Positions 10,688 to 51,497 of a stretch of DNA of 53,544 nucleotides are shown one piece after another (positions within the stretch are counted from its first letter, which is position 1; each line of letters begins with the position of its first letter). The DNA is taken from the IMG/VR virus record IMGVR_UViG_3300017767_000015, positions 1 through 53,544 of that record. One strand, given 5' to 3'. This DNA is from a virus. Lineage: Duplodnaviria; Caudoviricetes. The notes beneath the pieces are model-generated. The model was given only the letters and a program-made list of their open reading frames with translations. It was not told the DNA's origin and made no database searches. The position numbers and the translations under genes were made by a program.

Positions 10688-10962
10688 CTGCCGGAGAACC
10701 TGTCAAGTGGAGACCGCATTTCAATCAATTGATTGCGAGGCCGATACCACAGACAGAATATCCCAAGATTGCTCGTAAGATGTATGAAGATGGTCTAATA
10801 GCCATCTTGACATTAGATGGTGTAAAGTGGTATGCAGGTCGTTATCCCGTTCAAAAGAAGGTTGTTGGGGATATGTGGAACTTATCTAAAAGTCAAATGC
10901 AAAGGTTTGAACGGTGGGTTTATATGAACGATTCGTTTATAGAGATAGTGGAGGAGGAGTAG
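10684..10962 (+). CDS. Hypothetical protein
   Basis: GGTGA SD; ATGA overlap. Confidence 0.7.
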   Translation: MTAGEPVKWRPHFNQLIARPIPQTEYPKIARKMYEDGLIAILTLDGVKWYAGRYPVQKKVVGDMWNLSKSQMQRFERWVYMNDSFIEIVEEE

Positions 10963-10965
10963 AGT

Positions 10966-12175: not shown

Positions 12176-12592
12176 GTGATGGCGCGTAATAACTCTCGTA
12201 TAAGAAGGAGAGTAGCGGAAATACTCTTTGAGAAAGGGAGAATGACGCGTATCGAAATGGCCTCTATATTATTAGCAGAAGGCGAGTTCCGTTCTCTACC
12301 AAACGACTCAAGTTTAACTGCTATGCTATCTAAGAACTTGCAGATTAAACAAGACGGTTTTGAGATGGTTGATGTTGGGAATGGTATTAAGACTAAGAAT
12401 GTAGTCTATGCTATTAACGATGAAATTATACACAATAAAGAAGATTTGTTATACACAAGACCCTACTCAACAATGACAAACAAACAAAAACAACTCTCCT
12501 CAAGATGTGTTTCTTGTGGACAGATGCGATTGATAAAGGACAGATGGGCTGAATGTCTCGTATGTCAAAGACGGCAACCGACTGATTTATAA
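12176..12592 (+). CDS. Winged-helix protein with C-terminal Zn finger (putative transcription regulator)
   Basis: IL.EKG.MT..E...P.D..L..MLSKN; CVSC and CLVC; ATAAATA box upstream. Confidence 0.6.
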   Translation: MMARNNSRIRRRVAEILFEKGRMTRIEMASILLAEGEFRSLPNDSSLTAMLSKNLQIKQDGFEMVDVGNGIKTKNVVYAINDEIIHNKEDLLYTRPYSTMTNKQKQLSSRCVSCGQMRLIKDRWAECLVCQRRQPTDL

Positions 12593-12615: not shown

Positions 12616-12885
12616 ATGGCCGACAGAAAACTCCATGCAAGAGTCTCAATGTCAAAGACCTACAAATGCGGGGCTGACATTTATGACTACGGCATGATTA
12701 CTGACAAGACCGCACTCGCTATGAAGCCCTGTGAGATATGTTTTCCCGAAGGACTTAGTTTCTTGAGTAAGACCAAGAAGGTTAAGACTATTAAGGAGAA
12801 GTCTATCGGCAATATGAGCGAGGCGCAGAAATCACGGAAGAGGACTGAATGTCTCAAAGAGAAAAATATGGAGGAATGGATATGA
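12616..12885 (+). CDS. Small Zn-binding basic protein with C-terminal MEEWI
   Basis: H...CG...CEIC; TTTATAA box about 29 nt upstream (leaderless). Confidence 0.7.
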   Translation: MADRKLHARVSMSKTYKCGADIYDYGMITDKTALAMKPCEICFPEGLSFLSKTKKVKTIKEKSIGNMSEAQKSRKRTECLKEKNMEEWI

Positions 12886-13070
12886 GCAAATTGTATAGGA
12901 AGAAACATGAGGAAGAACAAGATGGAGTAATGGAAATAGTGACTGATTTACTTGATAGGGTATATGCACTAAAGGCAACTATAATAACGGCCACATTACA
13001 CATAGAGAGAGGCTACGCAGGTAAAGCAAAAGAGTTATTGGAAGCAGGTCTAAGGAGTGAAGAAGAATGA
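12849..13070 (+). CDS. Small hypothetical protein (start probably MSKLY at 12882)
   Basis: GGAGG SD; ATGA overlaps. Confidence 0.6.
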   Translation: MSQREKYGGMDMSKLYRKKHEEEQDGVMEIVTDLLDRVYALKATIITATLHIERGYAGKAKELLEAGLRSEEE

Positions 13071-19665: not shown

Positions 19666-21893
19666 TGATTGTTGAGAGAGGAAGAGGAAGCACAGTCATT
19701 GTAAGGCATAGAGATAGCGAAGGCAAGAGGCAGACAACCAAAATCACAGGCCATAGACCCTACCTATATGTCGAAGAACATATTGATGTTATCCCCCTTG
19801 AAACCGAAAGTGGTTTTACAGGTCTATACGGAGAGGACATAAAGAAAGTATTTTTCGGCACAACGCAAGATTTGTCGGAGTTTCGCAGTAGCAACCCCGA
19901 CACATCAACATGGGAAGGTAATATCCCCTTCACCAATAGAGTTCTTGTTGATAGCGAATTTGAATGCCCTAAGTACGAACATAGGGTTTGGTTCTTCGAT
20001 ATGGAATGGAAGATTGATGGTGGCGAGATAACTATAATTGTAGTGCGTGATTCTATCAAGGGCGAGTTTGTTTTCTTTACACATGAAGATTATGAGGCAG
20101 GTAATTACACAAGCATACCTTGTAAGAATCACCCCTATGGTGATGAGGCTTGCGAAACAGACGGGCGTTCATTCAAGGCTTTCAACAACGAATCCGAGAT
20201 GTTATCGGCATTTGCTAAATTACTCAATTCGCATGACCCCGATATATTGACGGGTTGGAATGTAGTCAATGCAGATTGTCAGCAGTTATTCAAGAGATTC
20301 AAACACAATAACTTAGATGTGAGAATGCTCTCTCCTATGAGGAGAGTGCGTTATGAGTTCGGTGATTGGGGTCAGCCCATAGTAGGGATAAATGTCATAG
20401 ACTTGATGATTGCGTTTAGCAAACTGTGGGTTATGAAGAACGGTCAATTACCTTCTATGGGTCTCGATGCAGTTTCTTTGCATTGTCTAAAAGACAAGAA
20501 ACTTCCTCTTGAAGATGGTCACGATACATACTACACAGACTTTGGAACATATCTTGATTACGCAAGACAAGATGTTGATTTGCTACCGAGACTAAATGAT
20601 TTGGTTGATGCTCTCGGATATTATACTGCTCTACAACATATTGTAGGTTGCGATATTAGAAGCACACCATTTATCACAAAGATGTTCACCTATCTAAGTA
20701 TGAGAGATAAGGACTTTGATAGAAAGATTCCTACTAAACCGCAGTTTGGGAAGGTGGAATATGAAGGTGCGGAGATAATGAAACCGCAAGCGGGAGTCTA
20801 TAAGAATATAGGGATATTCGATGTGAGAGCCATGTATCACAGTAATGTGGATAAATACGGTATTTGTTGGACTACTCTCGATGAAGAAGGGGAAGACTGC
20901 GGTAATGGTATCAAATTCAGTATGGATAAGAAGGGTCTATTATGCAGACAGATGGATAAAATGACTGAACTTCGCAACATATACAAGAAGAAGATGAAAG
21001 AATCGGAAACCGAGATGGAGAATAAGAGATACGACGCTCTCCAATTCGCAACAAAATCCCTTGTTGCTTCTATGTACGGGGTAGCAGGAGACGCAAAGTT
21101 CGGTATGTATCACCCCGATATTGCTGCTGCGATTACATTTACTTCAAGACAGACATTGGGCGAATTGCGAGACCACGCAGAACAACTTGGATTCCCCGTT
21201 ATCTACGGACATACCGATTCTATTATGTGCGAAGTTCCAACACCGGAACAAGGGCTTGCTGCATTGTCTATTATCAATGAGGAAATGAAACCAATAATCA
21301 CGGAGTTTGAGAAGTGGTCTTCCGCTTTCTTGATAATGGCAAAAAACAGATACGCAGGTATGGTTCAATGGACTGATGGTGATTACCATGAAAGAGAGTT
21401 CTATGTCAAAGGTATAGAGATGAAGCAAAGTAGGCTACCTAAAGCCATGAAAGATGCTATGGTAGGAGTGATAGATGCTATACTGACAGACACTAAGGAA
21501 GAAGTAATAACTATGCACTTAGGTTCTCTTATATCAAAGATAGTTAGTGGAGATATACCCGTTGAGGATTTGACAATAAAGGGGAAACTCAAGAATGATT
21601 TGTCAAAATATTCTGTTCTTAGTGAAGCAAGAGCAGGTGCTAAGTGGGCTAATGATAATTTGGGTAAAGGTTATCGCAAAGGAGATTACTTTCTATGCAC
21701 CATTGATGAACATGGAAACTACATAGGTTTCGATTCTCCCGATGAGATAGAGGGAATCGCAAAAATTGGATACCAACAGTTAGCAGATAAATATATTCTC
21801 TCAAAGGTATTACCTTATTATGAAGTAATGGGATGGGATAGTATGCCACTTGAAAATAAACTTCGTGGTATAGGCGATATGGAGTGGATTTGA
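19665..21893 (+). CDS. polB: Family B DNA polymerase with 3'-5' exonuclease (start at ATG 19665)
   Basis: Exo FFDMEW, PDILTGWN, Y...DV; Pol FDVRAMYHS, KSLVASMYG, YGHTDS, KNRYAG, KGIE. Confidence 0.93.
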   Translation: MIVERGRGSTVIVRHRDSEGKRQTTKITGHRPYLYVEEHIDVIPLETESGFTGLYGEDIKKVFFGTTQDLSEFRSSNPDTSTWEGNIPFTNRVLVDSEFECPKYEHRVWFFDMEWKIDGGEITIIVVRDSIKGEFVFFTHEDYEAGNYTSIPCKNHPYGDEACETDGRSFKAFNNESEMLSAFAKLLNSHDPDILTGWNVVNADCQQLFKRFKHNNLDVRMLSPMRRVRYEFGDWGQPIVGINVIDLMIAFSKLWVMKNGQLPSMGLDAVSLHCLKDKKLPLEDGHDTYYTDFGTYLDYARQDVDLLPRLNDLVDALGYYTALQHIVGCDIRSTPFITKMFTYLSMRDKDFDRKIPTKPQFGKVEYEGAEIMKPQAGVYKNIGIFDVRAMYHSNVDKYGICWTTLDEEGEDCGNGIKFSMDKKGLLCRQMDKMTELRNIYKKKMKESETEMENKRYDALQFATKSLVASMYGVAGDAKFGMYHPDIAAAITFTSRQTLGELRDHAEQLGFPVIYGHTDSIMCEVPTPEQGLAALSIINEEMKPIITEFEKWSSAFLIMAKNRYAGMVQWTDGDYHEREFYVKGIEMKQSRLPKAMKDAMVGVIDAILTDTKEEVITMHLGSLISKIVSGDIPVEDLTIKGKLKNDLSKYSVLSEARAGAKWANDNLGKGYRKGDYFLCTIDEHGNYIGFDSPDEIEGIAKIGYQQLADKYILSKVLPYYEVMGWDSMPLENKLRGIGDMEWI

Positions 21894-21930
21894 CGATAGA
21901 TTTATATTGATAAAGGAGAGTGAGATAAAT

Positions 21931-22230
21931 ATGCCAAGCAAGAGAAAGCCGACAGTAAGAGAATTAGAGAGCAATTTAAACGGTATGGCGAGTCGAATTG
22001 ACTCGTTCCTAAATATGTTCGTTAAAGAATTAGAAAAGCACAACATGATTATATCAAAACTACTTGAGAGTCTTGATATGATGCACATAGAGGTATGTCC
22101 TCATTGTGACGGAACTATTAGAACCCCTATCCTTGAGGGAATAGATAAGGTTGATGATTGCCCTTATTGTAATGAGCCTCTAAGAGAGTCTGTGCAGACT
22201 ACCCTCCACGATGTAAAAGAAGAGGAGTAG
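21931..22230 (+). CDS. Coiled-coil plus Zn-ribbon protein
   Basis: CPHC, CPYC; VQTTL near the C-terminus; GAGTGAG SD before MPSKR. Confidence 0.7.
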   Translation: MPSKRKPTVRELESNLNGMASRIDSFLNMFVKELEKHNMIISKLLESLDMMHIEVCPHCDGTIRTPILEGIDKVDDCPYCNEPLRESVQTTLHDVKEEE

Positions 22231-22232
22231 TT

Positions 22233-23165
22233 ATGAAGAGGCCACCGGAAGGACTTACTTCTAAGGAGTTATCAAAGTTAGGTAGTTATGACCCTAACGA
22301 TGAAGATAAGTTTTTGAAATTATCAAAATCCTCCTTCATGTCCTATAATATGTGTCCTCGTAAGTTTTGGTGGGAAAAGATACAATTGAAAGACACTCGA
22401 CTCCCTGCTACGGAGGCCATGCTTGCAGGAACTTTCGTGCATGAGAACCTTGAGACTGTCTATGATAATTGGGAAGGCCAATCTGTCTTATCCCCTCTTA
22501 TACCGGAAGATAGAGAGCATAAGTCAAACGCAAGCCTCGTATTCCTTGAGGAATGTAGGATTGAAAAGTGGGGTCTTGATAAATTCAAGCCCGTAGAGTA
22601 TGAAGAGTATAGGGCAGTATGGGATGAAGAGAATGAAGTTATCCTTGTTGGTCTCATAGATGCGATTCTTGTTCACCCCGATGGCGGTCTGTGTATTTAT
22701 GAACTTAAGACAGGTAATTGGGCTTCCAACAAAATGCAAAAGACAAGGAAGGAACTTTGTTATTACGCTCGTATGTTGCGATTGATGGGAGAAACAAGAC
22801 CTATCACACACTTTGCTTATCTTGCCCCCGATGCAGAAAACCCCAAGTTCTTCGCAGAACTGTGTGGTTGGAAGGATGATTGGGGAGAGTGGGATATTGA
22901 TAGAGTTATGACCTGCAAAGGTGGATGGGTCAATACGCAGAACAAAAAAGAAATCGCATTAGGTAAAGGCGGTAAAGGAATATTAATCGTGGAAAAAGTA
23001 AATAAGAGAAGTATTACATCATTAGAAAAGTCTCTAAAGGAGGCTTGCGAGGGTATAAAGAATCATCAATGGCCTATGAAATGGTCGGATTATTTCTGTC
23101 CTCAATGGTGCGACTTTTCAATGTCTTGCGAAAGTGAAATGAATGGATTAGATAATTTGTGGTGA
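22233..23165 (+). CDS. Cas4/AddB-like PD-(D/E)xK nuclease with Fe-S cysteines
   Basis: LSKS....Y..CPR, GT.VH, GLIDA, YELKTG, EL.YYA, C-terminal CPQWCDFSMSC. Confidence 0.85.
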   Translation: MKRPPEGLTSKELSKLGSYDPNDEDKFLKLSKSSFMSYNMCPRKFWWEKIQLKDTRLPATEAMLAGTFVHENLETVYDNWEGQSVLSPLIPEDREHKSNASLVFLEECRIEKWGLDKFKPVEYEEYRAVWDEENEVILVGLIDAILVHPDGGLCIYELKTGNWASNKMQKTRKELCYYARMLRLMGETRPITHFAYLAPDAENPKFFAELCGWKDDWGEWDIDRVMTCKGGWVNTQNKKEIALGKGGKGILIVEKVNKRSITSLEKSLKEACEGIKNHQWPMKWSDYFCPQWCDFSMSCESEMNGLDNLW

Positions 23166-23169
23166 AAGA

Positions 23170-23316
23170 ATGATTTGTAAAGAATGCGATGGAGAGATGA
23201 CAATTAAGGCAGATAGCAGACCTATTATGTTAATAACGGGTGATGTTGATACTGAAAGTAAAAGAATAGCGATATGCTCTATATGTGGACATAGAGAGAT
23301 TATTAAAGACGAGTAG
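23170..23316 (+). CDS. 48-aa Zn-ribbon microprotein (not in ORF track)
   Basis: MICKECDGEM...AICSICGHREIIKDE*; GGTGA SD. Confidence 0.65.
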   Translation: MICKECDGEMTIKADSRPIMLITGDVDTESKRIAICSICGHREIIKDE

Positions 23317-23329
23317 GTTGTGACATACT

Positions 23330-24307
23330 ATGCTCAAGTTTCCCCGACAGATTGGTTTGAAGAGACAGAAATGCTACTCCAAAGAAGAGTTTGATAGTTA
23401 TATCAACAAACTCAATGGTAAGACTAACATCTATACAAGCCTCTATCACTTTGACGACCCACATGATTATGATACTGTCGTTATTGACAGGGCTTGGTGG
23501 GATTTTGATATGAATGAAGATTATCCTATGCAGATAGTCAAAGAAGATGTTGCTAATCTAATAAAGCGTTTAGAAGGTGATGTGAGGCTTGTGGCGACAG
23601 GTAGAGGTTTCCATGTGCATCAAATATTCAAGCGACCCGTAAAGGGCAGGGATTGGGCTTTTCACCTTGACCGTTATCAAAGGAAGATGGCCGAAGGTCT
23701 CACTTCCCTTGATGGTGTAGGTTATCCGGAGAAGATTACTCGCGTCTCTAATACCTTTAATGTATCAAGAGGTAAGTGGGCTACTCCAATAGAAGCAAGG
23801 GTATTCGCACAGAATCCCAGTGATTATAGCATACCGAAAAGAAAGAACCTTGATAATATGCTTGACCCTTTCTTCGGTATAGTGAATCACGATGATTGCT
23901 TCGACTTGGTTATTTGGAAGGCTGATAATCCGTATCAAGAGTCCAATAATCGCACTAATAACACGGTTAAAGTAGGGCATCATGGGGGAGAAGTAGCATT
24001 ACCTACATGCCTAAATAGGGCTATTCGTATGAGCAACCCACCGCATCATGTCCGTGTTGGTTTAGTGCAGACTATGGCTCAACAGTTAAGATGGTTCGCA
24101 GACCCCGAAGATTTGACTATTGATGAGAGGATGGGTATTGTTGATAATATATGCGATTTCATAGAAGGTCTTGGTTGGATAGATTATAATTCTGCTACTA
24201 CTCGCAAGTATGTTCGTGGAATGATGAAATACAAGCGTTCCCCTTCCCCTTCTTGGTATCGCAGACACAATTTATGCAACGGAGATTGCTGGTATTGTGG
24301 GAAATGA
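23330..24307 (+). CDS. Archaeo-eukaryotic primase, PriS catalytic domain fused to a PriL C-terminal-like domain
   Basis: WWDFD, TGRGFHVH, ITRV.NT; then LPTC...NPPH..R..L, DYN...T, terminal LCNGDCWYC. Confidence 0.85.
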   Translation: MLKFPRQIGLKRQKCYSKEEFDSYINKLNGKTNIYTSLYHFDDPHDYDTVVIDRAWWDFDMNEDYPMQIVKEDVANLIKRLEGDVRLVATGRGFHVHQIFKRPVKGRDWAFHLDRYQRKMAEGLTSLDGVGYPEKITRVSNTFNVSRGKWATPIEARVFAQNPSDYSIPKRKNLDNMLDPFFGIVNHDDCFDLVIWKADNPYQESNNRTNNTVKVGHHGGEVALPTCLNRAIRMSNPPHHVRVGLVQTMAQQLRWFADPEDLTIDERMGIVDNICDFIEGLGWIDYNSATTRKYVRGMMKYKRSPSPSWYRRHNLCNGDCWYCGK

Positions 24308-24336
24308 TTATACAGTCTGTTAATTGTATTCGCGAT

Positions 24337-25047
24337 ATGATATACGCAGACGACAGGGAAAACGACGCTTTATTACATCGTCTTTATGTTGCTGCCGGAA
24401 ATCGTAAGACCGACCCTAAAGGTAATGTTCTCGTAAAGAGACTACCTCACGGTGATTATCAAATAGGAGATTGGTTGATTGAGGCAAAGGAAATCAACGA
24501 CTTGTATCGCACAATATTAGGTATAGGAAGGAACGGAAGGACAATCAATCATCAGTTATCGGAACTTTGCGAAGTATCAGAAAAACCATTCCTTGCGATT
24601 TATGGAACGCAATTGAAACCATATTTCAAGGGAAGAAAACCAAAGGCACATGAAATGAAGAAGGAAATAGCAAAAATGAATAGGGTTATCAAGTCATTTA
24701 AGATGGTTGCCTATTCGCATTTCCCTAAACTTAGGATTATAGAGTTCGTAAATATGGAAGATTTCGTTGAGTGGCTACAAGTATCGCACTTGAAAAAACA
24801 AATAGGTAAGACATTGACTGTTGCTAAGAGAACTAAGACTTTGCCTACTGACCCAAGATTGCTTGCTCTAATGGGAGTTCAAGGAATAACAGAAGAAATA
24901 GCAACATCATTACTCAATAAGTTCGGTAGCATACCTAACTTACTCAAGACAAAGGTTAGAATCAAAGACTTGATGGCTATTAGAGGAGTAGGTAGAGTCA
25001 CCGCAAGAAGGATAAAAGAATTGAGAACCACATGGAAGGATTTATAA
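24337..25047 (+). CDS. ERCC4/XPF-family structure-specific nuclease with HhH pair
   Basis: IYADDRE, LPHGDY, IEAKE..DL..TI, QL..L; VQGITEE.A..LL.KFGS, IRGVG..TA. Confidence 0.88.
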   Translation: MIYADDRENDALLHRLYVAAGNRKTDPKGNVLVKRLPHGDYQIGDWLIEAKEINDLYRTILGIGRNGRTINHQLSELCEVSEKPFLAIYGTQLKPYFKGRKPKAHEMKKEIAKMNRVIKSFKMVAYSHFPKLRIIEFVNMEDFVEWLQVSHLKKQIGKTLTVAKRTKTLPTDPRLLALMGVQGITEEIATSLLNKFGSIPNLLKTKVRIKDLMAIRGVGRVTARRIKELRTTWKDL

Positions 25048-25070
25048 ATACAACCAACCGTGTTTAGATT

Positions 25071-25147
25071 GAGGCAGGTAACACAACCCTCTTATGGTTC
25101 TCATTCTTCATTTGCATAAACTCCTCCTGTGTTACCTCGCCTCACCA
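25071..25147 (+). ncRNA. Putative 77-nt structured small RNA ending in ACCA
   Basis: TTTATAAATA box at 25041-25050; GAGGC-AGGTAACACA pairs with TGTGTTACCT-C-GCCTC; inner TTATG/CATAA stem; ACCA at 25144-25147. Confidence 0.5.
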
Positions 25148-25148
25148 A

Positions 25149-28100
25149 TTAGTAAGGTCGGAAGTTATCACTTTCGGCAACATTAGGTTTATTCAATCTT
25201 CTTAGATTCACGGAAGTATTGTGAATGATTAGGGAATCATAAGGCGCATTGTCATTACCTTGATTAGGTTTCCTTGTTATGTCTATTTTAAGGGTGTTTC
25301 CTGCGGTGCTAAGACCCTCAATGAGGGTAGTGGGCATCAAGAGTATCTTCTCCCTGTTTTTAGAGCCTGTAAGGACTTTTGTTGTGCTAACGCTCTTGTT
25401 AGTTTCAATGCAAGTAGCAGTCATTGTTAGTTCTATATTGGTTGAGGTATCTGTTGATACTATTGACTCAAGAGAAAATAATCCCCCTGCCGAATCATTA
25501 GGAACTCGCAAAGACATGGAATAAGTATGTTGCTCATTCTGCCCCGAACCGGAGTCAAGAGGGTTTTCTATACCGGACATACAGAATCCTTCGGATGTTG
25601 CGATTGCTACTCCGGTTGTAGGTGAACTGATAACATCAACACCATCAACTGCTCTATCGAAGGAGGATTGATTACCTGTCTTCTTCATACCGAGAATGCC
25701 CCATGTTCCGCCACTTGAACCTATGTCATTGTTGAAATCGGATTTACCTTTGATTCTATTTAGTAGGCTTTGCGATATATCATTAGAAGTCATACCAGCA
25801 TAACCCATACCTTGCGAAGATGGGTCTCCACCATCCACATGACGACTCATCATTACCTTTCTTCCATCATTATCTCCCGAACCTCCGAACTTGGCGGGTG
25901 GTGGTCTTAGCGAAGGTGGTCTTGGTCTTGCGGGTTTTGCTTTTGCTTTATCTCCTCCGCCTCCGCCTCCTCCTGTTCTCTCTTTAAATGCTCTTGCGAA
26001 ATTGTATCGAGAATGGGTTGATAATTTTTCAAGACCTAATTTTACTTGTTCCACATTCCTTTCTGTTTGTTGCCAACCTATTCTCTTTATTATCATCCTC
26101 TCATTACTTATGTCAATATTAGCATCTGTATATGTTAGGCTTGTAGCAGGAATATAAGCAAAATCATCAACTATGTTTATTCTTGGTGCGTAATAAGCAG
26201 CGTGTTCCTTTGCTAAAGCACCCATCTCCGGATATTCTCTCATTCCTAATGGGAATATGGAATCAGCAGAAGTGGATAATCCTAATGACCCAAGACCTAT
26301 CTTCCCATTAGCCATTGATGATTGTCCAAAGGCTACTACATCACCGCATCTTTCTTTAATAAGCGCGCACAGATAATCATAATTAACTGAAAATATTATT
26401 TTGCGAGCATTACCATCATAACTCGATGGTATATCCATTGTGTAATATCCATTTCCGTCTATCGTAATATCCTTTCTATATGTTGAGTTTAGTGTATTTG
26501 TTACTGTATTATCCGGAGGGAAATTAGATGAAGTAGCGGTTGTATTAAAATCGCAATCCATTAAATACAATTGGAATTTTACATCTGTGCTATTCGTTCC
26601 CGAAAATAATCCAATTGCTAATCGCAACTTTTCTCCGGTAGTAGCACTTACTTTGTTAGTTCCTGCACTAACATGCACTACTTGTAGAGCATTTGACAGG
26701 CTATTTGCCCCATAGAAATAATAGGCTTCATTTTTTAGATGTTGTTCGGCAAAAGAAAAATTAATGGTATGAACTCCGGAGGAAAAAGAAGTTCCATCAT
26801 AGTATATTCTAAAATTATAGTAGTTTCCTGTGCTTCCTATTTGACATGGTAAATTATAATATCCTGCGGTAGAATAGGTGACATTAGTTCCTGTATTACC
26901 ATTATAGTCAAATCTAAATGTTGTAGAAGCAGTAGTTATTATTACTTGCCCTGCAATACCAAAAGCAGTTAGTGGAGGATTAGCAAATGTATTACTGCCA
27001 CTTGGATTAAATACGCCACCATCTGTTTTAAACAAAGATAATCCTTCCACCCCGAAAGTTTCCGGATGTGCTTCATTACCTACAACCGGATGAGCAACTT
27101 GTGAGGTTGATGTATGGGGATTGGTTTTGTCAAAGGTATGTGTGGCTTTACTTTTACCTATTTTGTGTAGTCCATTTTGTATTCCAAAGAAAGGACTAAC
27201 TCCGTTTTTATTAGACCACCAACAGGTTTCGGGTTGCGTGTGCGATATTGAGGTTGATGATGTATTCAATCTTTTTCTAAACACATCTGCGATATATCCT
27301 CTTCTACCACTAAGCATCTTGTGATTATTATTAGCATCTCTTAGCATTTCTGCTTCAATACTAATTTTTGATTCGGTTTCTCTATCAAATTCTTGTTTTG
27401 CTAATGCTTCTGCTTCTCCTCTATTCATAACTTCGGGGAATGCTAAAGTTTTCCATCTTATATCTGTATTTTCGCTTGGTGTTGGGAAATCAACAAATGA
27501 ACTATTACCATTATAATATACTCTTACATTTGTTATTTGCGAAAATCCTTCTGTTCTAAGATTTGATGTTTTTAAATTGTCACGATTTAAAGTAACGCCC
27601 AAATCATATATTTCTCTAAACTCTAATCTGTTATCTCTTCCCATTTGGAAAGTCAATCTTTTAGTATTACCAGCAATACCTACTCCTTCTTTGCTACTCA
27701 TACTATCAAGAATATCATAGATGGTTTTTGTCTTTGCATCAATAGAACATCCGAAAGTGTCCGAAGAATTATCTCTCAATATAGGAACATTGTTAATATC
27801 ACTAATTGCAGGAAGGGAAGAATTATTTAACCAAGATTCGTGAATTGCATTATTTTGAATAAATGAAATCTTCTCATCAGCAGTAAATGTTCCGCAATTA
27901 GCAGAAGTAATTTTACCTACTATGTTTAAGTTTAATCGCAGACCATATAGAGCAGCAGTAGTATTATAGACAGTGACTTTATCAAAATTAGTATCTAATT
28001 TATCATCGGATAGTAAGTCTTCGTTGCTACCAATCGCAACACTACTTCCTGTTGCACCTGCCGTTACATCTGCTTTTAATTGGTCTATTGCATGTTGAGG

Positions 28101-31100
28101 ATGCGTAACTACTGAATAAGATGTAAGATATACACCTGTTAGAGTATCAACAACAGTTCCATTTATGGTAGCAGTTCCTTTTCCTGTCCAAGCATAGTAG
28201 TATGCAGTTTTTTCTGCGGTATTATTACTACCCTTCTCGCACATTATTACTCCATATCCGGAAGTATCAAATTCTGTTATATCCTTTAGTGCTAATGTAG
28301 TATCTCCTACTACAAGATTACTTTTTAATTTAGTTCCGTCATTAATAAAATTCAAAGAGTTTTTATGTTTTTGGATAGGACTTCCCGAATTTTTATAAGA
28401 TGCAGTAGCCTCTTTCCAATAAGAATCAATAAGGTATGGGAATCCGAATGTTGCTACATTGTAATCTCCAAAATCTACAAGGCCACCTGCTGAATAACCC
28501 GGCCTTCCTCCACAAGCCATAGTGTTTAAATTCCAAAATCTGCTCACATCAACAAGTGCTATTGCACCACCTTTGTTTTGCCAATTGTGGTATCTTGTAT
28601 CGTATGGTTCATCGTTGCTTGCGCCATCTAAAGCAGACCAAGCACCGCCACTATAAGGCTCAACGGTAGAATCAATATCCCAAATATCTGCATCTGCGCC
28701 TATTTTTAAGTCTGTAAATACATCGGGTTGTCCTTCATTATCAAATTGGTCTGCAAATGTAAGTAGTAATTCGTAGTTCTGCGTAGTAGGTAAATTTAGA
28801 CCATAAGTTGTTTTTCTGTGTCCTCCGTCTGCATCTGCATTACCATCGTTTCGCATATCAGCCCAAGATAGGAATATATGTTTGTAGCCATTAGACTCAT
28901 CTACTTTTCGCAAACCAAGAATAGTATCATTTATTTTCCATTCTCTTTTTACTCCTTTTACTCCACCAATAGTTACAATACCATGTGCTGCCTTTCCTCC
29001 TGTTTCAGCAGAAGGGAAAGAACCATCCCACCCACAGTTAGTATTAACATCTGTTGCTTCAAGACTCCAATTAACTGCATCGGGGTCTTGATTGTGTCTT
29101 GCCGTTCCATCATTCCAACCCGACCCTTGTTGATACTTAGCCTGTAAAAACGCAAAAGAGTTTCTTGTAGGAACATACTTGTTAATTTTCCATGTCTTAA
29201 TGTGATTTGCTGATAATGATGAACCCGTTGATGTTGATATTTCTTTTACCATGTGGACTCCATTTAATGCAGAATTTGATTTAAAACCACAAATTGCTAT
29301 AATGTCTCCTTCTGCAAGACCATGTGCGCTTCCAAAATCCCAAGTTCCGTCTCCTTCCCAATCAATAGGAACTTCATTTTGTATTGATAATAAACTACCA
29401 ATCGCAAAATCATGTTCTCCTGTTGAGTTATCTATTAAATCTAAAATAAATTCATCTAATTTATTCATGGTAGCATGATACCAAATAGCAGGGTCTTTAA
29501 TTGTTATTGAAATAGCACCTGCGGCAATATCAGCAGTTAATTTAGCACTTGTTCTACCTGTTGATGTAGCCCAACCATTTGCCGTTGCTTGTGTTGAAGT
29601 AAAGGGATGTTCTGTAATACTACCTACACCTGCTCTTGTATATGGTTCTGCATCTATAATACCAAACTGTGCTTTAAACCAAGTAGATAAAGGCAAGTCT
29701 CGCATCCATCTTGCGTGTATTCGACTATGTATTACAGGGTCTAAGCCCACTCTTACCATTTCAGCATTAGCAGTATCGGTAGTAGCACCACTTGGAGTTT
29801 GATGTATAACGGCAGGAGTTATTACTCTTCTTTTATCATTATGCGAATTAATATCTCTTTGTCTATACACATGCAGTTCTTCTGTGGCAGCAGAAGCAGT
29901 AAAATTAGCAAGACCTGTTTTTTTTGTTGTTTCAGCATAAACTGTTCCTGCCGAAGGAACTCCTATTACAGTAAATACTTCTCCTGCGAATGGATGGTCT
30001 GCACCGGAAAAACCTACAAATTCATCTCCTATGCTTAAATTATGTGGAGAAGGAGTATTAACAATAAATTCTAATAATTCGTTGCCAAACATATTCATGT
30101 TATAACTTTGTATGTGATTTACTATATTAAAAGTAATTTGTAGATTATCGCTTGCTTGTGTTCCTGTTACTGCCAATTCAAAGGCTACATACCTGTTATC
30201 AGTTCCGCCTTGATGTTGCTTATATGTTATCGCAGAAATAATAAGGTTATCAGCGTCATTAGTTAATGTTCCTTTTAGAGACACCCTATCACCTACTGCT
30301 AACGCACGATAATGAGTAGTTCCGGAAGTATCAATAGTAAATCTTGTATCTCTTTCTATAATTACAAATAGTTTATTTGCTTCTCTATACATAGAATAAA
30401 TATCAAACATTCCCCAATTCGCTGCATTTAATCCAGCCCATTCTTTTTCAACGGAGTTTGCGCCATCTTCGTCTTCATTAATATACATCTGTATAGCAGT
30501 TCCGGAGTATAAACTCATTTTACTATTAGCAACATTATTATAATTAAGAAGCCTTCCTCTTGTATTAAAAACACCAAATCCTATATTAGAATCAAGCATC
30601 TGCAAATCAACAGAACCAAAGTCCATTTTTTGATGTAGTGCAAATGTCTCATCGTATTTTTTAGCAGTAGAAGCAGACATAGATAAATGGTTGTTAAGGG
30701 ATTGGAATGCACCTTGACCTACTTCCCAAATAGGAAGCAATCTATTAAATACACTTAAAGAATCCGAAGCACTAATTGTTGTTGTCATAGAATTATCATA
30801 AACACTTTGTTTATGTGTAATGTTTTCAATAAAGCCCCACCATAGAGGTCTATCTTCGTTTTCTTGAAATACTAATAGCCTCCAATCTTCTGCGGTAGAA
30901 GTAAGAGGAGTAAGAGTAAATGCGCTATTATCATCTAATATATCAATAGAGCATGTGCTTGTGGAATTAGCACCTAAATTCATTGTCATTTTATTAACAG
31001 GAGGTAAAGAATTTAAATCACCATTAAATTTATTTGTAAGAGGAATAGCCATACCTGCTCTATCAATAAGAGTAGTATGGTTTATGTAATCATCACTACC

Positions 31101-32366
31101 TTTTGTATAATGCAAATCTAAAGACCAACCATTAAGGCCACCCATAGTCGCTGCACTAAATGTTGTTCCAAAAGAACCATTATTAAAAGGAGTAGTATTA
31201 CCATCAGCATAAGCCTTCCATGTGTTACCAGCAAAATCCATTACTACTTGAACATCAACCCAATCTCCTACTTTTGTTTGATTTAGATTAGCAGGAGTGC
31301 CAAAAGAATCTTTGGTAATAGAACCTTTTGCTTTCTGCAAAGAGGCATGTGCTAAATCAATATCAACTGTAACAAGAGATGTTACAGAAGACCAAGTATT
31401 GTTTGCTTTTACATAAGGATTAGGATAACCTAATTTAAGTGTATATTTTGGAGTATGATTTGAATGTGGGTCGCACATTAATCGCAAGTTAAATGTCTCA
31501 CCTATACCTTTAAATCGCAACTTACCTGTGTAATTAATTACTCTATGAGTTCCCGAAGAAGCGGTTTGTTCGGGTTCAATAAATACATTATGAACAAAAA
31601 AGTTTTGTCCGGAAGGACTTGTTATTTCATGCGATTGCGAAAGTGAATATGATACTGTGGGAGTTTGTCTTGCGAATGCAGAATGATAATAAGCACCAGC
31701 AAATGAAGCCATTACTAATGTCTTATCGGGAGTATCATGACTTCCCGAAGTATTAGTAAGTCCTTTATGGAAAAAGGGTATTGGGTTTCCGGCACTTGGG
31801 CTTGCTTGTGAAGTAACTCCTGCGGTTATATCATACATGCTTACAGGTGCAGAACCATAAGACATATCCATAATACCCATAGGAACATAATATATTCCTG
31901 CCGTTTCATGTCCGTTCCGAAATGCAAGGTAGTTATGGTCTGTTGCTTCACCATTGTATTTCTGTCTATTTGCGATTATAGAATTAGGAACTTCTAAGTG
32001 CATTCTATTTTGATATAAATTTGATTCTGCTTCTCTTGGATTTAATGTAAGTGCTTCATGGAAACCTGCATTTGTTTTTAGGTTATCTCCTGCTAAAGAC
32101 TGAAATGAAGTTAAATATAATTCTTGTTCTGTTGAGTAAGTAGTATGAAGACTACCTAAATATTCTTGTCGTAGTCTATCTGCATAAGAGTAATAAAATC
32201 TTGGAATAAAAGATACATTACCAATAGAAGAACCATGATGGGATAAAGTATGGTCTAAATCTCTATACGATGCAGGATTTAAATCATCTGCAACTAATCT
32301 ACAAGAGTTAAAATCGTCGTAATATCCGGACAACCAATAATTATATTTTGTTCCAACTGTCTTCAT
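25149..32366 (-). CDS. Very large tail tip/hub and receptor-binding protein
   Basis: 2405 aa directly after the tape measure; tail-hub-like segments (LWWGFIE.I.H, ISASDSL, ITNVRVYY, EAEALAK, IIKRIGW) interrupted by beta-rich inserts. Confidence 0.75.
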   Translation of the reverse strand: MKTVGTKYNYWLSGYYDDFNSCRLVADDLNPASYRDLDHTLSHHGSSIGNVSFIPRFYYSYADRLRQEYLGSLHTTYSTEQELYLTSFQSLAGDNLKTNAGFHEALTLNPREAESNLYQNRMHLEVPNSIIANRQKYNGEATDHNYLAFRNGHETAGIYYVPMGIMDMSYGSAPVSMYDITAGVTSQASPSAGNPIPFFHKGLTNTSGSHDTPDKTLVMASFAGAYYHSAFARQTPTVSYSLSQSHEITSPSGQNFFVHNVFIEPEQTASSGTHRVINYTGKLRFKGIGETFNLRLMCDPHSNHTPKYTLKLGYPNPYVKANNTWSSVTSLVTVDIDLAHASLQKAKGSITKDSFGTPANLNQTKVGDWVDVQVVMDFAGNTWKAYADGNTTPFNNGSFGTTFSAATMGGLNGWSLDLHYTKGSDDYINHTTLIDRAGMAIPLTNKFNGDLNSLPPVNKMTMNLGANSTSTCSIDILDDNSAFTLTPLTSTAEDWRLLVFQENEDRPLWWGFIENITHKQSVYDNSMTTTISASDSLSVFNRLLPIWEVGQGAFQSLNNHLSMSASTAKKYDETFALHQKMDFGSVDLQMLDSNIGFGVFNTRGRLLNYNNVANSKMSLYSGTAIQMYINEDEDGANSVEKEWAGLNAANWGMFDIYSMYREANKLFVIIERDTRFTIDTSGTTHYRALAVGDRVSLKGTLTNDADNLIISAITYKQHQGGTDNRYVAFELAVTGTQASDNLQITFNIVNHIQSYNMNMFGNELLEFIVNTPSPHNLSIGDEFVGFSGADHPFAGEVFTVIGVPSAGTVYAETTKKTGLANFTASAATEELHVYRQRDINSHNDKRRVITPAVIHQTPSGATTDTANAEMVRVGLDPVIHSRIHARWMRDLPLSTWFKAQFGIIDAEPYTRAGVGSITEHPFTSTQATANGWATSTGRTSAKLTADIAAGAISITIKDPAIWYHATMNKLDEFILDLIDNSTGEHDFAIGSLLSIQNEVPIDWEGDGTWDFGSAHGLAEGDIIAICGFKSNSALNGVHMVKEISTSTGSSLSANHIKTWKINKYVPTRNSFAFLQAKYQQGSGWNDGTARHNQDPDAVNWSLEATDVNTNCGWDGSFPSAETGGKAAHGIVTIGGVKGVKREWKINDTILGLRKVDESNGYKHIFLSWADMRNDGNADADGGHRKTTYGLNLPTTQNYELLLTFADQFDNEGQPDVFTDLKIGADADIWDIDSTVEPYSGGAWSALDGASNDEPYDTRYHNWQNKGGAIALVDVSRFWNLNTMACGGRPGYSAGGLVDFGDYNVATFGFPYLIDSYWKEATASYKNSGSPIQKHKNSLNFINDGTKLKSNLVVGDTTLALKDITEFDTSGYGVIMCEKGSNNTAEKTAYYYAWTGKGTATINGTVVDTLTGVYLTSYSVVTHPQHAIDQLKADVTAGATGSSVAIGSNEDLLSDDKLDTNFDKVTVYNTTAALYGLRLNLNIVGKITSANCGTFTADEKISFIQNNAIHESWLNNSSLPAISDINNVPILRDNSSDTFGCSIDAKTKTIYDILDSMSSKEGVGIAGNTKRLTFQMGRDNRLEFREIYDLGVTLNRDNLKTSNLRTEGFSQITNVRVYYNGNSSFVDFPTPSENTDIRWKTLAFPEVMNRGEAEALAKQEFDRETESKISIEAEMLRDANNNHKMLSGRRGYIADVFRKRLNTSSTSISHTQPETCWWSNKNGVSPFFGIQNGLHKIGKSKATHTFDKTNPHTSTSQVAHPVVGNEAHPETFGVEGLSLFKTDGGVFNPSGSNTFANPPLTAFGIAGQVIITTASTTFRFDYNGNTGTNVTYSTAGYYNLPCQIGSTGNYYNFRIYYDGTSFSSGVHTINFSFAEQHLKNEAYYFYGANSLSNALQVVHVSAGTNKVSATTGEKLRLAIGLFSGTNSTDVKFQLYLMDCDFNTTATSSNFPPDNTVTNTLNSTYRKDITIDGNGYYTMDIPSSYDGNARKIIFSVNYDYLCALIKERCGDVVAFGQSSMANGKIGLGSLGLSTSADSIFPLGMREYPEMGALAKEHAAYYAPRINIVDDFAYIPATSLTYTDANIDISNERMIIKRIGWQQTERNVEQVKLGLEKLSTHSRYNFARAFKERTGGGGGGGDKAKAKPARPRPPSLRPPPAKFGGSGDNDGRKVMMSRHVDGGDPSSQGMGYAGMTSNDISQSLLNRIKGKSDFNNDIGSSGGTWGILGMKKTGNQSSFDRAVDGVDVISSPTTGVAIATSEGFCMSGIENPLDSGSGQNEQHTYSMSLRVPNDSAGGLFSLESIVSTDTSTNIELTMTATCIETNKSVSTTKVLTGSKNREKILLMPTTLIEGLSTAGNTLKIDITRKPNQGNDNAPYDSLIIHNTSVNLRRLNKPNVAESDNFRPY

Positions 32367-50261: not shown

Positions 50262-51497
50262 ATGAAGACGGCAGATAGACTCAAATTGATAAAAGACAAT
50301 CTCGGTGAATGGCAAGGTGTAGTAAGAGGATTTGCAGAAATTCTGCAAAGTAAGGCAGACAAAGAATTTACTCTTGAGTCATGGTGTCAGTTTATTAATA
50401 GAACAAAAAAGAAACATCCCGAATGGTTTAGTTATGATACCTTTAATTATTATGATATGATTCCTAAAGAGTGGGATGGTTCGGATGCCGAGTTAGCAAG
50501 AAGGCTTTGGAGACAAAATCCTTCTATAAGTGTAAATGCTTGGACACATAAGGTAAGACTACAAAGACAAAGAGGGGCAATCACCAAGAGCCATAAACCA
50601 CATTTCGTTGTTGAGCATCTAAAGAAAGCAGCATCGAATCCCGAAGATTTATGGGCTAACATAGAAAAGGTATGTAAAAAAGCAATAGAGGGTGTTGAAC
50701 ATGCTCGATGGGCTGATATACACATGAGAAACATTGATAATGATAAATTTATTGGTATTGCATTCCAAAGTGACCAACACATAGGTAATCCTTTCTGTGA
50801 CCTTGAAAAGTTAAGACTTGATACTGAAATGATTAACAGTAGCAAAAATGTCTTTGTTATACATGCGGGTGACTATATTGATAACTTTATGATTGATAAA
50901 CCACGACCTGCTATGAAAGCACCAATTCCCCCTTCTGTTCAATGGAAGTTATGTGAGCATTATATTGATATGACTCCGGAATGTCTAATGGCTATTGTTG
51001 CAGGTAATCACGACCTTTGGACTGCTGGTGCAACAGATTATGACCCTCTAAAGAGACTTGCAGAAGAAAGAGGCATTTTGTATCATGCACATGAATTAAA
51101 TCTTAGAGTATGGGTAAATGATATACCATACTGTATTTCTGTTAGGCATAAGCGAAGAGGTAACAGTCAGTTAGACCCAAGCCGTGTTATCAAAAAGATG
51201 TGGGATGACGGAGAAGCAGACTTTGATATTGGGGTAGTAGGGCATCACCATACTCCTTCCGTAGTTCCATTTACTAAACATGGTATTGAAAGATGGGCTA
51301 TAAGACCGGGCGCGTATAAAATTGTTGATTCGTTTAGTGAAATGTGCGGATTTTCAAGAGAAAGACCTACATCCCCTATGGTAATACTTAATCCTCATAC
51401 AAAAGAAGTACAGGCTTTCACAGATTTGCGACATGGTTTAAGGACACTCGCTGCATTAAATGGAGATGAGTATGATGAAAATTTGGGCATCGAATGA
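50262..51497 (+). CDS. Calcineurin-like metallophosphoesterase with N-terminal helical/HTH-like region
   Basis: SDQHIG, AGDYIDN, AGNHD, VRH, VGHHH; TTTATAT box about 30 nt upstream of ATG 50262. Confidence 0.88.
   Translation: MKTADRLKLIKDNLGEWQGVVRGFAEILQSKADKEFTLESWCQFINRTKKKHPEWFSYDTFNYYDMIPKEWDGSDAELARRLWRQNPSISVNAWTHKVRLQRQRGAITKSHKPHFVVEHLKKAASNPEDLWANIEKVCKKAIEGVEHARWADIHMRNIDNDKFIGIAFQSDQHIGNPFCDLEKLRLDTEMINSSKNVFVIHAGDYIDNFMIDKPRPAMKAPIPPSVQWKLCEHYIDMTPECLMAIVAGNHDLWTAGATDYDPLKRLAEERGILYHAHELNLRVWVNDIPYCISVRHKRRGNSQLDPSRVIKKMWDDGEADFDIGVVGHHHTPSVVPFTKHGIERWAIRPGAYKIVDSFSEMCGFSRERPTSPMVILNPHTKEVQAFTDLRHGLRTLAALNGDEYDENLGIE

Follow-up and report, generated by a model that had tools for sequence, protein, structure and literature searches.

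The 53,544-base record IMGVR_UViG_3300017767_000015 of an uncultured tailed virus, analysed over its full length and referred to here as the window, carries a replication module on the plus strand and a tail module on the minus strand that converge on each other, and the 101-nt gap between them (25048-25148) raises the question of what this intergenic stretch encodes. An earlier note, made by reading the letters of the sequence, had proposed a trans-acting small RNA (sRNA) with tRNA-like ends. We find that the gap contains a long-stemmed hairpin that is beyond chance, because 37 distinct relatives bear a hairpin with covarying arms at the same junction, and on balance we are modestly inclined to read it as a small gene of its own for a non-coding RNA, in a tailed virus of archaeal type.

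The hairpin in the window

The gap, a T/A-rich box at its left edge, a 15-bp helix with one bulged C, a terminal ACCA and an inner stem had all been described in the earlier note, and each of them is present. The box is taken up below together with the promoter; the hairpin itself is made up of the following parts:

25071-25147, plus strand: predicted 77-nt small RNA, with its 5' end placed from promoter geometry, and supported by its fold energy and by a covariance model match
25071-25085, plus strand: 5' arm of the terminal helix, from the fold and from covariation in the family
25086-25127, plus strand: 42-nt pyrimidine-rich loop, from the fold and the sequence, containing the inner stem, UCAUUCUUC at 25101-25109 and CUCCUCC at 25121-25127
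25128-25143, plus strand: 3' arm of the terminal helix with C25138 bulged, from the fold
25144-25147, plus strand: unpaired ACCA tail, from the fold; the family has an almost invariant A and often CC, but no conserved CCA

The terminal helix pairs G25071-A25085 with U25128-C25143 over 15 bp, with C25138 as its one bulged base, and the minimum-energy fold also includes the weak inner stem UUAUG (25092-25096)/CAUAA (25115-25119). The 77-nt RNA folds with an energy of -24.6 kcal/mol compared with -9.5 ± 2.6 kcal/mol for shuffled sequences (n = 200), a z-score of -5.9, and 0/200 shuffles were as good. In the window the inverted repeat can be folded on both strands, with -29.2 and -34.3 kcal/mol. 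R1, a covariance model of the element built as described below, scores 45.9 bits on the window (E of 5e-10), which is its sole match there with filters off.

Conservation and covariation

Related loci (numbered with an L) were fetched with the protein sequence of the nuclease encoded directly upstream of the gap and then with an alignment of the nucleases (A1), yielding 10 and then 23 viral loci, and 80 metagenome loci were kept of 151 relatives. Once exact duplicates, loci cut short and the four loci lacking a comparable stem had been taken out, the counted set comprised 38 distinct elements including the window, that is, 37 relatives. The rows dropped were L055 and L076, in which the match stops short of the nuclease C-terminus, L045 and L070, in which the contig ends inside the element, and L077, L079, L090 and L091, for which our stem finder returned no comparable stem; by eye, L079 has a similar-looking hairpin.

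A hairpin is present in every locus that has a nuclease at least about 59% identical to that of the window and a contig reaching beyond the stop codon. In the relatives it begins 21-26 nt past the nuclease stop and ends a few nt ahead of the stop of the convergent tail gene, and its stems comprise at least a dozen unrelated sequences, for example GGGUCGGAGAC, UGUCGGAGGGGG, GAGCGAGUCGCAC, GCGGGAGAGCGAC and GCUACGAGACC, each of them complementary to its partner arm. The nearest relatives, L012 and L035, have nucleases that are 98-99% identical and a loop that is almost the same, their tail reads AUCU and not ACCA, and the inner half of the helix has been swapped for a different, still complementary sequence. 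When the window (25080-25085/25128-25133) is set beside L012 (3734-3816; nuclease 98% identical), this inner half is replaced and the loop differs at one base, so that turnover of the stem is much faster than that of its surroundings.

The element occurs as one copy per genome and its matches are restricted to the nuclease/tail junction. In 33 more distant loci (L078, L080-L084, L086-L089 and L092-L114), with nucleases 43-54% identical, both genes overlap tail to tail by 4-27 nt and there is no spacer and no hairpin; L085, with 47% identity, has a short version of the element. The distribution suggests an accessory gene of a single clade. A pattern scan of viral contigs with the commonest stem (100 stretches) found no new homes for the hairpin family; the stretches other than clade members and two further copies proved for the most part to be genuine tRNA genes or fortuitous matches to GC-rich coding DNA. 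We also observed a different hairpin with the same outer stem, UGGGUCGG...CCGACCCA, in an unrelated group of viral contigs (L145 4578-4641; also L227, L240 and L243); the interior of this L145-type hairpin is 74% pyrimidine and includes CUCCUCCC.

A MAFFT alignment of all 38 elements (A2) placed the arms out of register and was not used; a subset of 19 sequences with a 12-bp helix (A3) was taken instead to build R1. A search of 74 sources (349,546 bases, both strands) with R1 gave 35 matches, all on the plus strand at the junction, of which 16 lie outside the training set, 11 of these 16 at E < 0.01; nothing was found by R1 in 35 more distant loci. At E up to 1 the model missed L030, L067 and L085 among the 38. 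On whole viral records, R1 gave one strong match in each of four and none in the fifth, G003, whose element L030 is one of those that it misses. The covariation alignment comprises 34 distinct rows, and 98.3% of its 400 cells hold a standard pair, versus 39-50% when the 3' partners are slid by 1-3 columns. Both sides have changed in 11 of the 12 pairs, 0/500 shuffles reach any of the observed measures, and RNAalifold predicts the identical 12 pairs from this alignment.

The cells of the alignment that are not Watson-Crick pairs comprise 23 G.U/U.G against 2 A.C, and both of the latter are artefacts, one from the window bulge and one from a row shifted by two columns; the sequences being related, the 23 wobble cells represent perhaps 10-12 independent events. 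A stem finder that admits Watson-Crick pairs only, applied to the unaligned sequences, recovers the same helices, with 23 internal single mismatches of the G.T/T.G type in the plus orientation and 0 of the A.C/C.A type. The plus strand folds better than the minus strand in 32/38 elements. Tolerance of G.U on the plus strand alone argues for folding of a single-stranded plus strand, and a selected single-strand structure of this strand is very probable from the aligned sequences. The structured plus-strand RNA that the earlier note had postulated is supported by this pattern, and the homologues at the same junction, which it had proposed to test for covariation, do covary.

Tolerance of G.T on one strand would also fit a hairpin in single-stranded plus-strand DNA, acting as a priming or initiation signal or as a site of replication, packaging or recombination. 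The neighbouring gene does belong to a structure-specific nuclease family, and the site lies opposite the divergent region near 50 kb. Such a DNA hairpin is nevertheless improbable: it leaves the fixed-distance promoter, the same-strand tRNA genes and the anti-Shine-Dalgarno-like motif described below unexplained, and relatives without the element keep the nuclease.

A predicted promoter at a fixed distance

Two sequence features precede the hairpin and overlap the end of the nuclease gene:

25034-25040, plus strand: purine-rich GGAAGGA at a position like that of the B recognition element (BRE); other TTTATAW promoters are preceded by GGA, GA or GG
25041-25050, plus strand: TATA box TTTATAAATA, overlapping the nuclease stop TAA (25045-25047); TTTATAW plus 30 nt leads to G25071, the first base of the helix

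The upstream regions of the window fall into two classes, internal genes with a Shine-Dalgarno (SD) sequence of the GGAGG or GGTGA type, and genes with TTTATA(A/T) 30 nt ahead of the ATG and no SD sequence. A TATA box about 30 nt ahead of the ATG and no SD sequence is the pattern of archaeal leaderless transcripts. TTTATAW occurs 14 times in the window on both strands, seven of these on the plus strand in plus-coding sequence. Five of the six such plus-strand boxes other than the one at the gap have the ATG of an open reading frame (ORF) at exactly +30; these boxes are at 12586, 17161, 19177, 21901 and 50232 (plus), with ATGs at 12616, 17191, 19207, 21931 and 50262, and they are preceded by GGA, GA or GG with no SD sequence between box and ATG. 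By this spacing, the ORF listed from 50244 may truly start at 50262. A TTTATAT box at 10919 (plus; 10919-10965) predicts a start at about 10949 with a leader beginning GUGGAGGAGGAG, which is the exact complement of CUCCUCC in the hairpin loop. In the genomes of five relatives, leaderless genes have TTGATAAG or TTTATAT at -30/-31, the same variants as are found before their hairpins.

Counting from the first base of the helix as +1, 37 of the 38 elements have T at -29, 32 have A at -27 and 37 have A at -24, and none of them has a C in -29 to -23. Nearer the helix, A occupies -11 in 28 elements and -10 in 26, 36 elements have T at -1 and all 38 have G at +1. Positions -36 to -32 are G/A-rich in the family, a stretch that is also coding sequence. 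The box overlaps the stop or the last codons of the nuclease gene, with a tandem stop in many relatives (TAATAA, TGATAA or TAATAG), and the C-terminal residues of the nuclease vary among subclades while the T/A box and its spacing stay. In archaeal promoters the start, a pyrimidine-purine initiator, is preceded by an A/T element near -10, by a TATA box some 26-27 nt upstream and by a BRE rich in purines; as sequence features alone, all of these are found in the position table of the 38 elements and in the box-to-start distance of the leaderless ORFs.

By analogy with the leaderless genes, transcription would start at the base of the helix, at about G25071. The earlier note had already assigned the box and this start, and the +30 spacing of the other boxes, the C-free box and the invariant G all speak for the assignment. 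We consider an independently transcribed RNA gene rather more likely than not. The same analysis gives a promoter model for these uncultured viruses, namely a TATA box 30 nt ahead of the ATG of leaderless genes.

The loop and a possible mode of action

The loops of the family are 30-62 nt long and their interior consists of 10.7% A, 32.6% C, 15.7% G and 41.0% U, that is, 74% pyrimidine. CCUC is found in 38/38 loops (shuffle mean 21.3) and CCUCC in 28/38 (shuffle mean 7.6; 0/500 shuffles reach this), and for two other recurrent strings, UUCGG in 21/38 and GGUUU in 23/38, the shuffle means are 4.0 and 6.1; the shuffles ignore the relatedness of the sequences and their p-values are generous. Each loop has one to four copies of CCUC(C), one of them usually 0-10 nt ahead of the 3' arm, and the motif is unpaired in all 10 single-sequence folds. 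CCUCC is the core of the anti-SD sequence of 16S rRNA, and the anti-SD-like motif that the earlier note had pointed out in the window is thereby a conserved feature of the loop. Sites to which it could pair are in use, with GGAG, GAGG or GGTG at -20 to -3 of 32/63 window starts compared with 9/63 mid-gene controls, and five other genomes are similar. The exposed motif is complementary to these SD sites, as an SD-masking sRNA would have it, and the anti-SD core is the sole conserved single-stranded sequence of the element.

The loop of the window has a second, longer complementarity. GAAGAATGA has five plus-strand copies in the window, over the ATGs at 1318, 1694, 1912, 2711 and 13067, and one minus-strand copy at 25101-25109; the chance expectation is 0.86 and 0/100 shuffles reach 6. 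Five early-gene start codons are covered by GAAGAAUGA. Exact 9-mer complements of the window loop lie in 7/68 start regions, versus 1.26 ± 1.26 for shuffled loops (fraction reaching this 0.003), and with automatic gene calls in six genomes the 9-mer excess is found in the window (p of 0.001-0.01) and is marginal in G001 (p of 0.03-0.07). The five early-gene junctions (1300-2720 and 13050-13070) share (G)GTGAAGAAGAATGA, with the upstream stop overlapping the next start as ATGA, which suggests a repeated translational-coupling cassette among small early genes.

We propose the following mode of action for a separate RNA gene. An archaeal promoter, made up of the TATA box that overlaps the nuclease stop and of T(-1)G(+1) as initiator, would direct a start at about G25071, and the product would be a hairpin RNA of about 75-80 nt in which a helix of 11-16 bp seals both ends and a nearly unstructured loop of 30-60 nt, 74% pyrimidine, displays one to four CCUC(C). 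This RNA would be made and be stable, and its exposed CCUCC would act in trans by pairing with the purine-rich SD regions of host or viral mRNAs, so as to block ribosome docking and spare leaderless messages; alternatively, it could be a decoy for a factor that recognises the anti-SD tail of the rRNA. Silencing of SD-led mRNAs by the predicted RNA, as the earlier note had suggested, is plausible from the motif, and action in trans through the motif is the mechanism that we find likeliest, pairing of the anti-SD type being nonetheless a tentative and rather doubtful proposal. A bolder version is unlikely, namely that the virus makes an abundant nuclease-proof hairpin that mimics the 3' end of 16S rRNA with multiple anti-SD cores in its open loop and soaks up SD sites or the factor that reads the rRNA tail. 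If it were true, translation in the infected archaeon would shift to leaderless messages, which head the viral operons, and a virus RNA would reprogramme start-site selection by imitating the sequence with which the ribosome docks.

Several points weigh against a separate RNA gene acting in this manner. The 5' end at G25071 is placed by analogy with leaderless genes whose own transcript starts are deduced likewise, and no recognisable signal marks the 3' end of the predicted RNA in the window. Conservation of the TATA box could partly reflect coding or, given the relatedness of the 38 sequences, common descent. The covariation alignment was fitted to the structure of R1 and leans toward it, a bias that is offset because the independent stem finder recovers the same helices from unaligned sequences, and a C-to-T mutation bias of the plus strand may add to the asymmetry of G.T over A.C. 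Five bases, CCUCC, in a C/U-rich loop are a weak basis for a mechanism. As to target pairing, the window loop does not bind the 68 start regions any better than shuffled loops do (mean RNAduplex energy -14.5 versus -13.8 ± 0.55, p of about 0.1), and four of the five other genomes (G002-G005) have no excess of exact loop complementarity to their own start regions.

The earlier note had read the match of UCAUUCUUC to the five start junctions as targeting of early genes. The match itself is present in the window, but in our reading of the family it is lineage-specific or due to chance and not a conserved function, because the pairing energies equal those of shuffles, the excess is missing in G002-G005 and the string UCAUUCUUC recurs only in the near-identical L012 and L035.

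tRNA-likeness, termination and coding on the opposite strand

The element has no tRNA-like arms. As the earlier note had said of the D and T arms, none is recognisable: ARAGORN finds 0 tRNA genes in the window and no tRNA at the element in 40 related loci, and it does find the real adjacent tRNAs in 8. The tail after the helix begins with A in 32/38 elements, with ACC in 18/38 and with ACCA in 4/38, so that the ACCA emphasised in the earlier note is a feature of few elements, absent already from L012 and L035. The nearly invariant A that follows the helix could merely pair with the conserved T at -1. In 8/37 relatives a plus-strand tRNA gene begins 7-15 nt after the hairpin:

L030 3811-3883, and also in L033, L037, L059, L071 and L074, same strand as the hairpin: tRNA-Pro(UGG), six loci
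L050 1717-1792 and L063 2306-2381 (the latter with encoded CCA), same strand as the hairpin: tRNA-Ala(UGC), two loci

Two different tRNA genes have settled right after the hairpin in different subclades. Read by eye, the 30 nt ahead of these tRNAs contain no T/A-rich box, and transcription must therefore run through the hairpin.

A tRNA-like minihelix, perhaps derived from a tRNA, could be recognised by tRNA-processing or CCA-adding enzymes through its blunt G-C helix and A-CC overhang and serve as a mimic or decoy. The frequent A and ACC after the helix and the real tRNA genes downstream are in keeping with this, and the outer stem GGGUCGG/CCGACCC-A-C is also the acceptor stem of phage tRNA-Lys, -Tyr, -Met and -Leu genes. 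G-rich 7-bp stems shared with tRNAs are, however, expected by chance; D, anticodon and T arms are lacking, ARAGORN is negative in the window and at every element, ACCA is rare and the invariant A has a possible partner at -1. We regard a minihelix of this kind as improbable, and maturation like a tRNA or action as a tRNA decoy, both raised in the earlier note, gained nothing positive beyond the co-location with tRNA genes.

Archaeal termination is reported to rely on oligo-T, with some five T or more in a row on the coding strand where the transcript ends. Within 15 nt after the stem on the plus strand, a run of at least four T (T4+) is found in 4/38 elements and one of at least five (T5+) in 0/38; within 32 nt on the minus strand the counts are 10/38 and 1/38, and inside the loop T4+ (U4+ in the RNA) occurs in 22/38 and T5+ in 8/38. 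A consensus terminator scan of 20000-30000 gave no site at the element. The element has the layout neither of a bacterial-type intrinsic terminator nor of an archaeal oligo-T terminator.

The earlier note had listed a bidirectional intrinsic terminator, serving both convergent modules, as an alternative. With its high GC content, its place between convergent genes and its ability, in the window, to fold on either strand, the inverted repeat has the look of one, but its loops are 30-60 nt and not a few nt, T5+ is all but lacking on either side, the terminator scan is empty here, A.C mismatches would weaken the minus-strand form, and the promoters are of the archaeal type, for which termination reportedly depends on oligo-T. 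A plain terminator is unlikely because there are few T-runs, promoterless tRNA genes lie downstream in 8/37 relatives and the genes overlap without a hairpin in 33 loci; the convergent arrangement therefore does not need the hairpin. To a bidirectional terminator in particular we give very little credence.

The other alternative listed there was a peptide encoded on the minus strand. GGAGGAG does occur on that strand at 25121-25127, ahead of the mini-ORF MQMKNENHKRVVLPASI*, and both are found in the window, L012 and L035. In 11 of the 38 elements no ORF of 5 or more residues begins with an ATG at this place, the peptides of the other elements are unrelated and lie in different frames, and conservation follows base pairing and not codons. 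That such a peptide accounts for the element is scarcely credible.

The main rival to a separate RNA gene is a cis-acting element at the 3' end of the replication-module mRNA, which would protect it from exonucleases or stop or insulate transcription, with no RNA gene of its own. The element does sit at the end of the plus-strand module between convergent genes, the plus-strand asymmetry and the covariation fit such a role equally well, and the U4+ in 22/38 loops could stop some archaeal polymerases. However, neither the fixed 30-nt distance to the TATA-like box nor the T(-1)G(+1) at the helix base would then serve any role, T5+ follows none of the 38 stems, tRNA genes lie directly downstream in 8/37 relatives, 33 related loci lack any spacer, and CCUCC is not needed for the protection of an end. 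We judge a cis-acting element unlikely, and take it more seriously than the other alternatives.

Comparison with known RNAs

An Rfam assignment, which the earlier note had suggested looking for, was not obtained. Rfam 15 gave four chance-level matches elsewhere in 24500-25700 of the window at E up to 10 and none on the element, and a single unrelated match in 18 relatives at E up to 1; the families searched include Y RNA, YrlA and the marine IMES RNAs.

Among sRNAs with a comparable loop motif, RsaE/RoxS of Firmicutes are bacterial and mask SD sites with exposed C-rich motifs, and sRNA162 of Methanosarcina mazei is an archaeal sRNA reported to mask ribosome-binding sites. These resemble the element in being small RNAs of tens to about 100 nt with unpaired C-rich motifs complementary to GGAGG-type sites. 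The viral element differs from them in being virus-encoded, with an archaeal-type promoter, a single large loop under one long helix and no terminator hairpin.

In overall shape the element is closer to the Y RNAs and YrlA, which have a terminal helix around a large pyrimidine-rich loop, some of them phage-encoded and with tRNA-like features. It shares with them the size of a tRNA, ends that form a long helix, a big pyrimidine-rich loop and a link to tRNAs, but it has no Rfam match and no conserved bulged Ro-binding motif in the helix; none of the 38 window proteins scanned contains a TROVE/Ro domain, the remaining small ORFs being outside the scan.

The element is of the same size as tRNAs and minihelices, its helix likewise closes with a G-C pair before an unpaired A and, in many elements, CC, and it has viral tRNA neighbours on the same strand, whereas the cloverleaf arms are lacking and CCA is not conserved (4/38). 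With intrinsic or bidirectional terminators it shares a GC-rich inverted repeat in a convergent gap, and it departs from them in its loop of 30-60 nt, the lack of a U-tract, its own predicted promoter, the tRNA genes downstream and its absence from relatives with overlapping genes. A parallel in genomic position is the OOP RNA of phage lambda, which is 77 nt long, has its own promoter and runs convergently towards a neighbouring gene, to whose 3' end it is antisense. Both would be short promoter-driven RNAs of a gene junction, the viral one predicted to be fully complementary to the untranslated 3' end of the convergent transcript. Unlike OOP, the predicted RNA ends 1 nt before it would reach the tail ORF and would overlap untranslated sequence only, its host and promoter are of the archaeal type, and there is no sequence relation.

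In the literature searched, no non-coding RNA is reported for marine archaeal tailed viruses, supplementary files, which possibly annotate these contigs, lying outside the coverage of the search. Passages of the magrovirus and Poseidoniales virus papers (PMC5434244, PMC11706807) make no mention of such an RNA.

We consider the element, as defined by its sequence, a new RNA family of a known general kind, so far confined to one clade of uncultured marine archaeal-type tailed viruses. A whole virus clade keeps a covarying hairpin with a predicted promoter at one fixed junction. If the RNA is expressed, it would provide a testable handle on how archaeal viruses bias translation between SD-led and leaderless mRNAs, and a new RNA family for the annotation of marine viromes.

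The virus and the neighbouring genes

The record has a completeness estimate of 84%. Its plus-strand genes run from the left end to 25047 and encode a DNA methylase, an RFC-like AAA+ clamp loader, a family B DNA polymerase (PolB), a PD-(D/E)XK nuclease and, as the last gene, an ERCC4 and helix-hairpin-helix (HhH) nuclease. The minus-strand genes run from 49979 to 25149 and encode the portal, the tail tube, a tape-measure-like protein and a 2405-aa tail protein. The two genes that border the gap are:

24337-25047, plus strand: ERCC4 + HhH nuclease, last gene of the replication module (Pfam ERCC4 6e-09, HHH_5 3e-07)
25149-32366, minus strand: convergent 2405-aa tail protein, with its stop codon 1 nt past the ACCA tail

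Homologues of the C-terminus of the tail protein end at the same junction in 96/98 related loci with a called minus-strand ORF. No DNA match to the window and no match to the nuclease was found in a phage collection. PolB is closest to that of haloarchaeal tailed viruses, with an identity of only 23-24%, and a comparison of the nuclease with species genomes gave only five relatives, with identities of 24-28% and all of them in archaeal metagenome-assembled genomes. Because of the promoters, the RFC-like clamp loader, PolB and ERCC4, we infer a host of archaeal type and assign it no further.

The nuclease gene is listed with a TTG start at 24253. This start is doubtful because the relatives align only from residues 19-29 onward and L001 has an in-frame stop within the upstream extension (24253-24336), and the ATG at 24337 is likely to be the true start.

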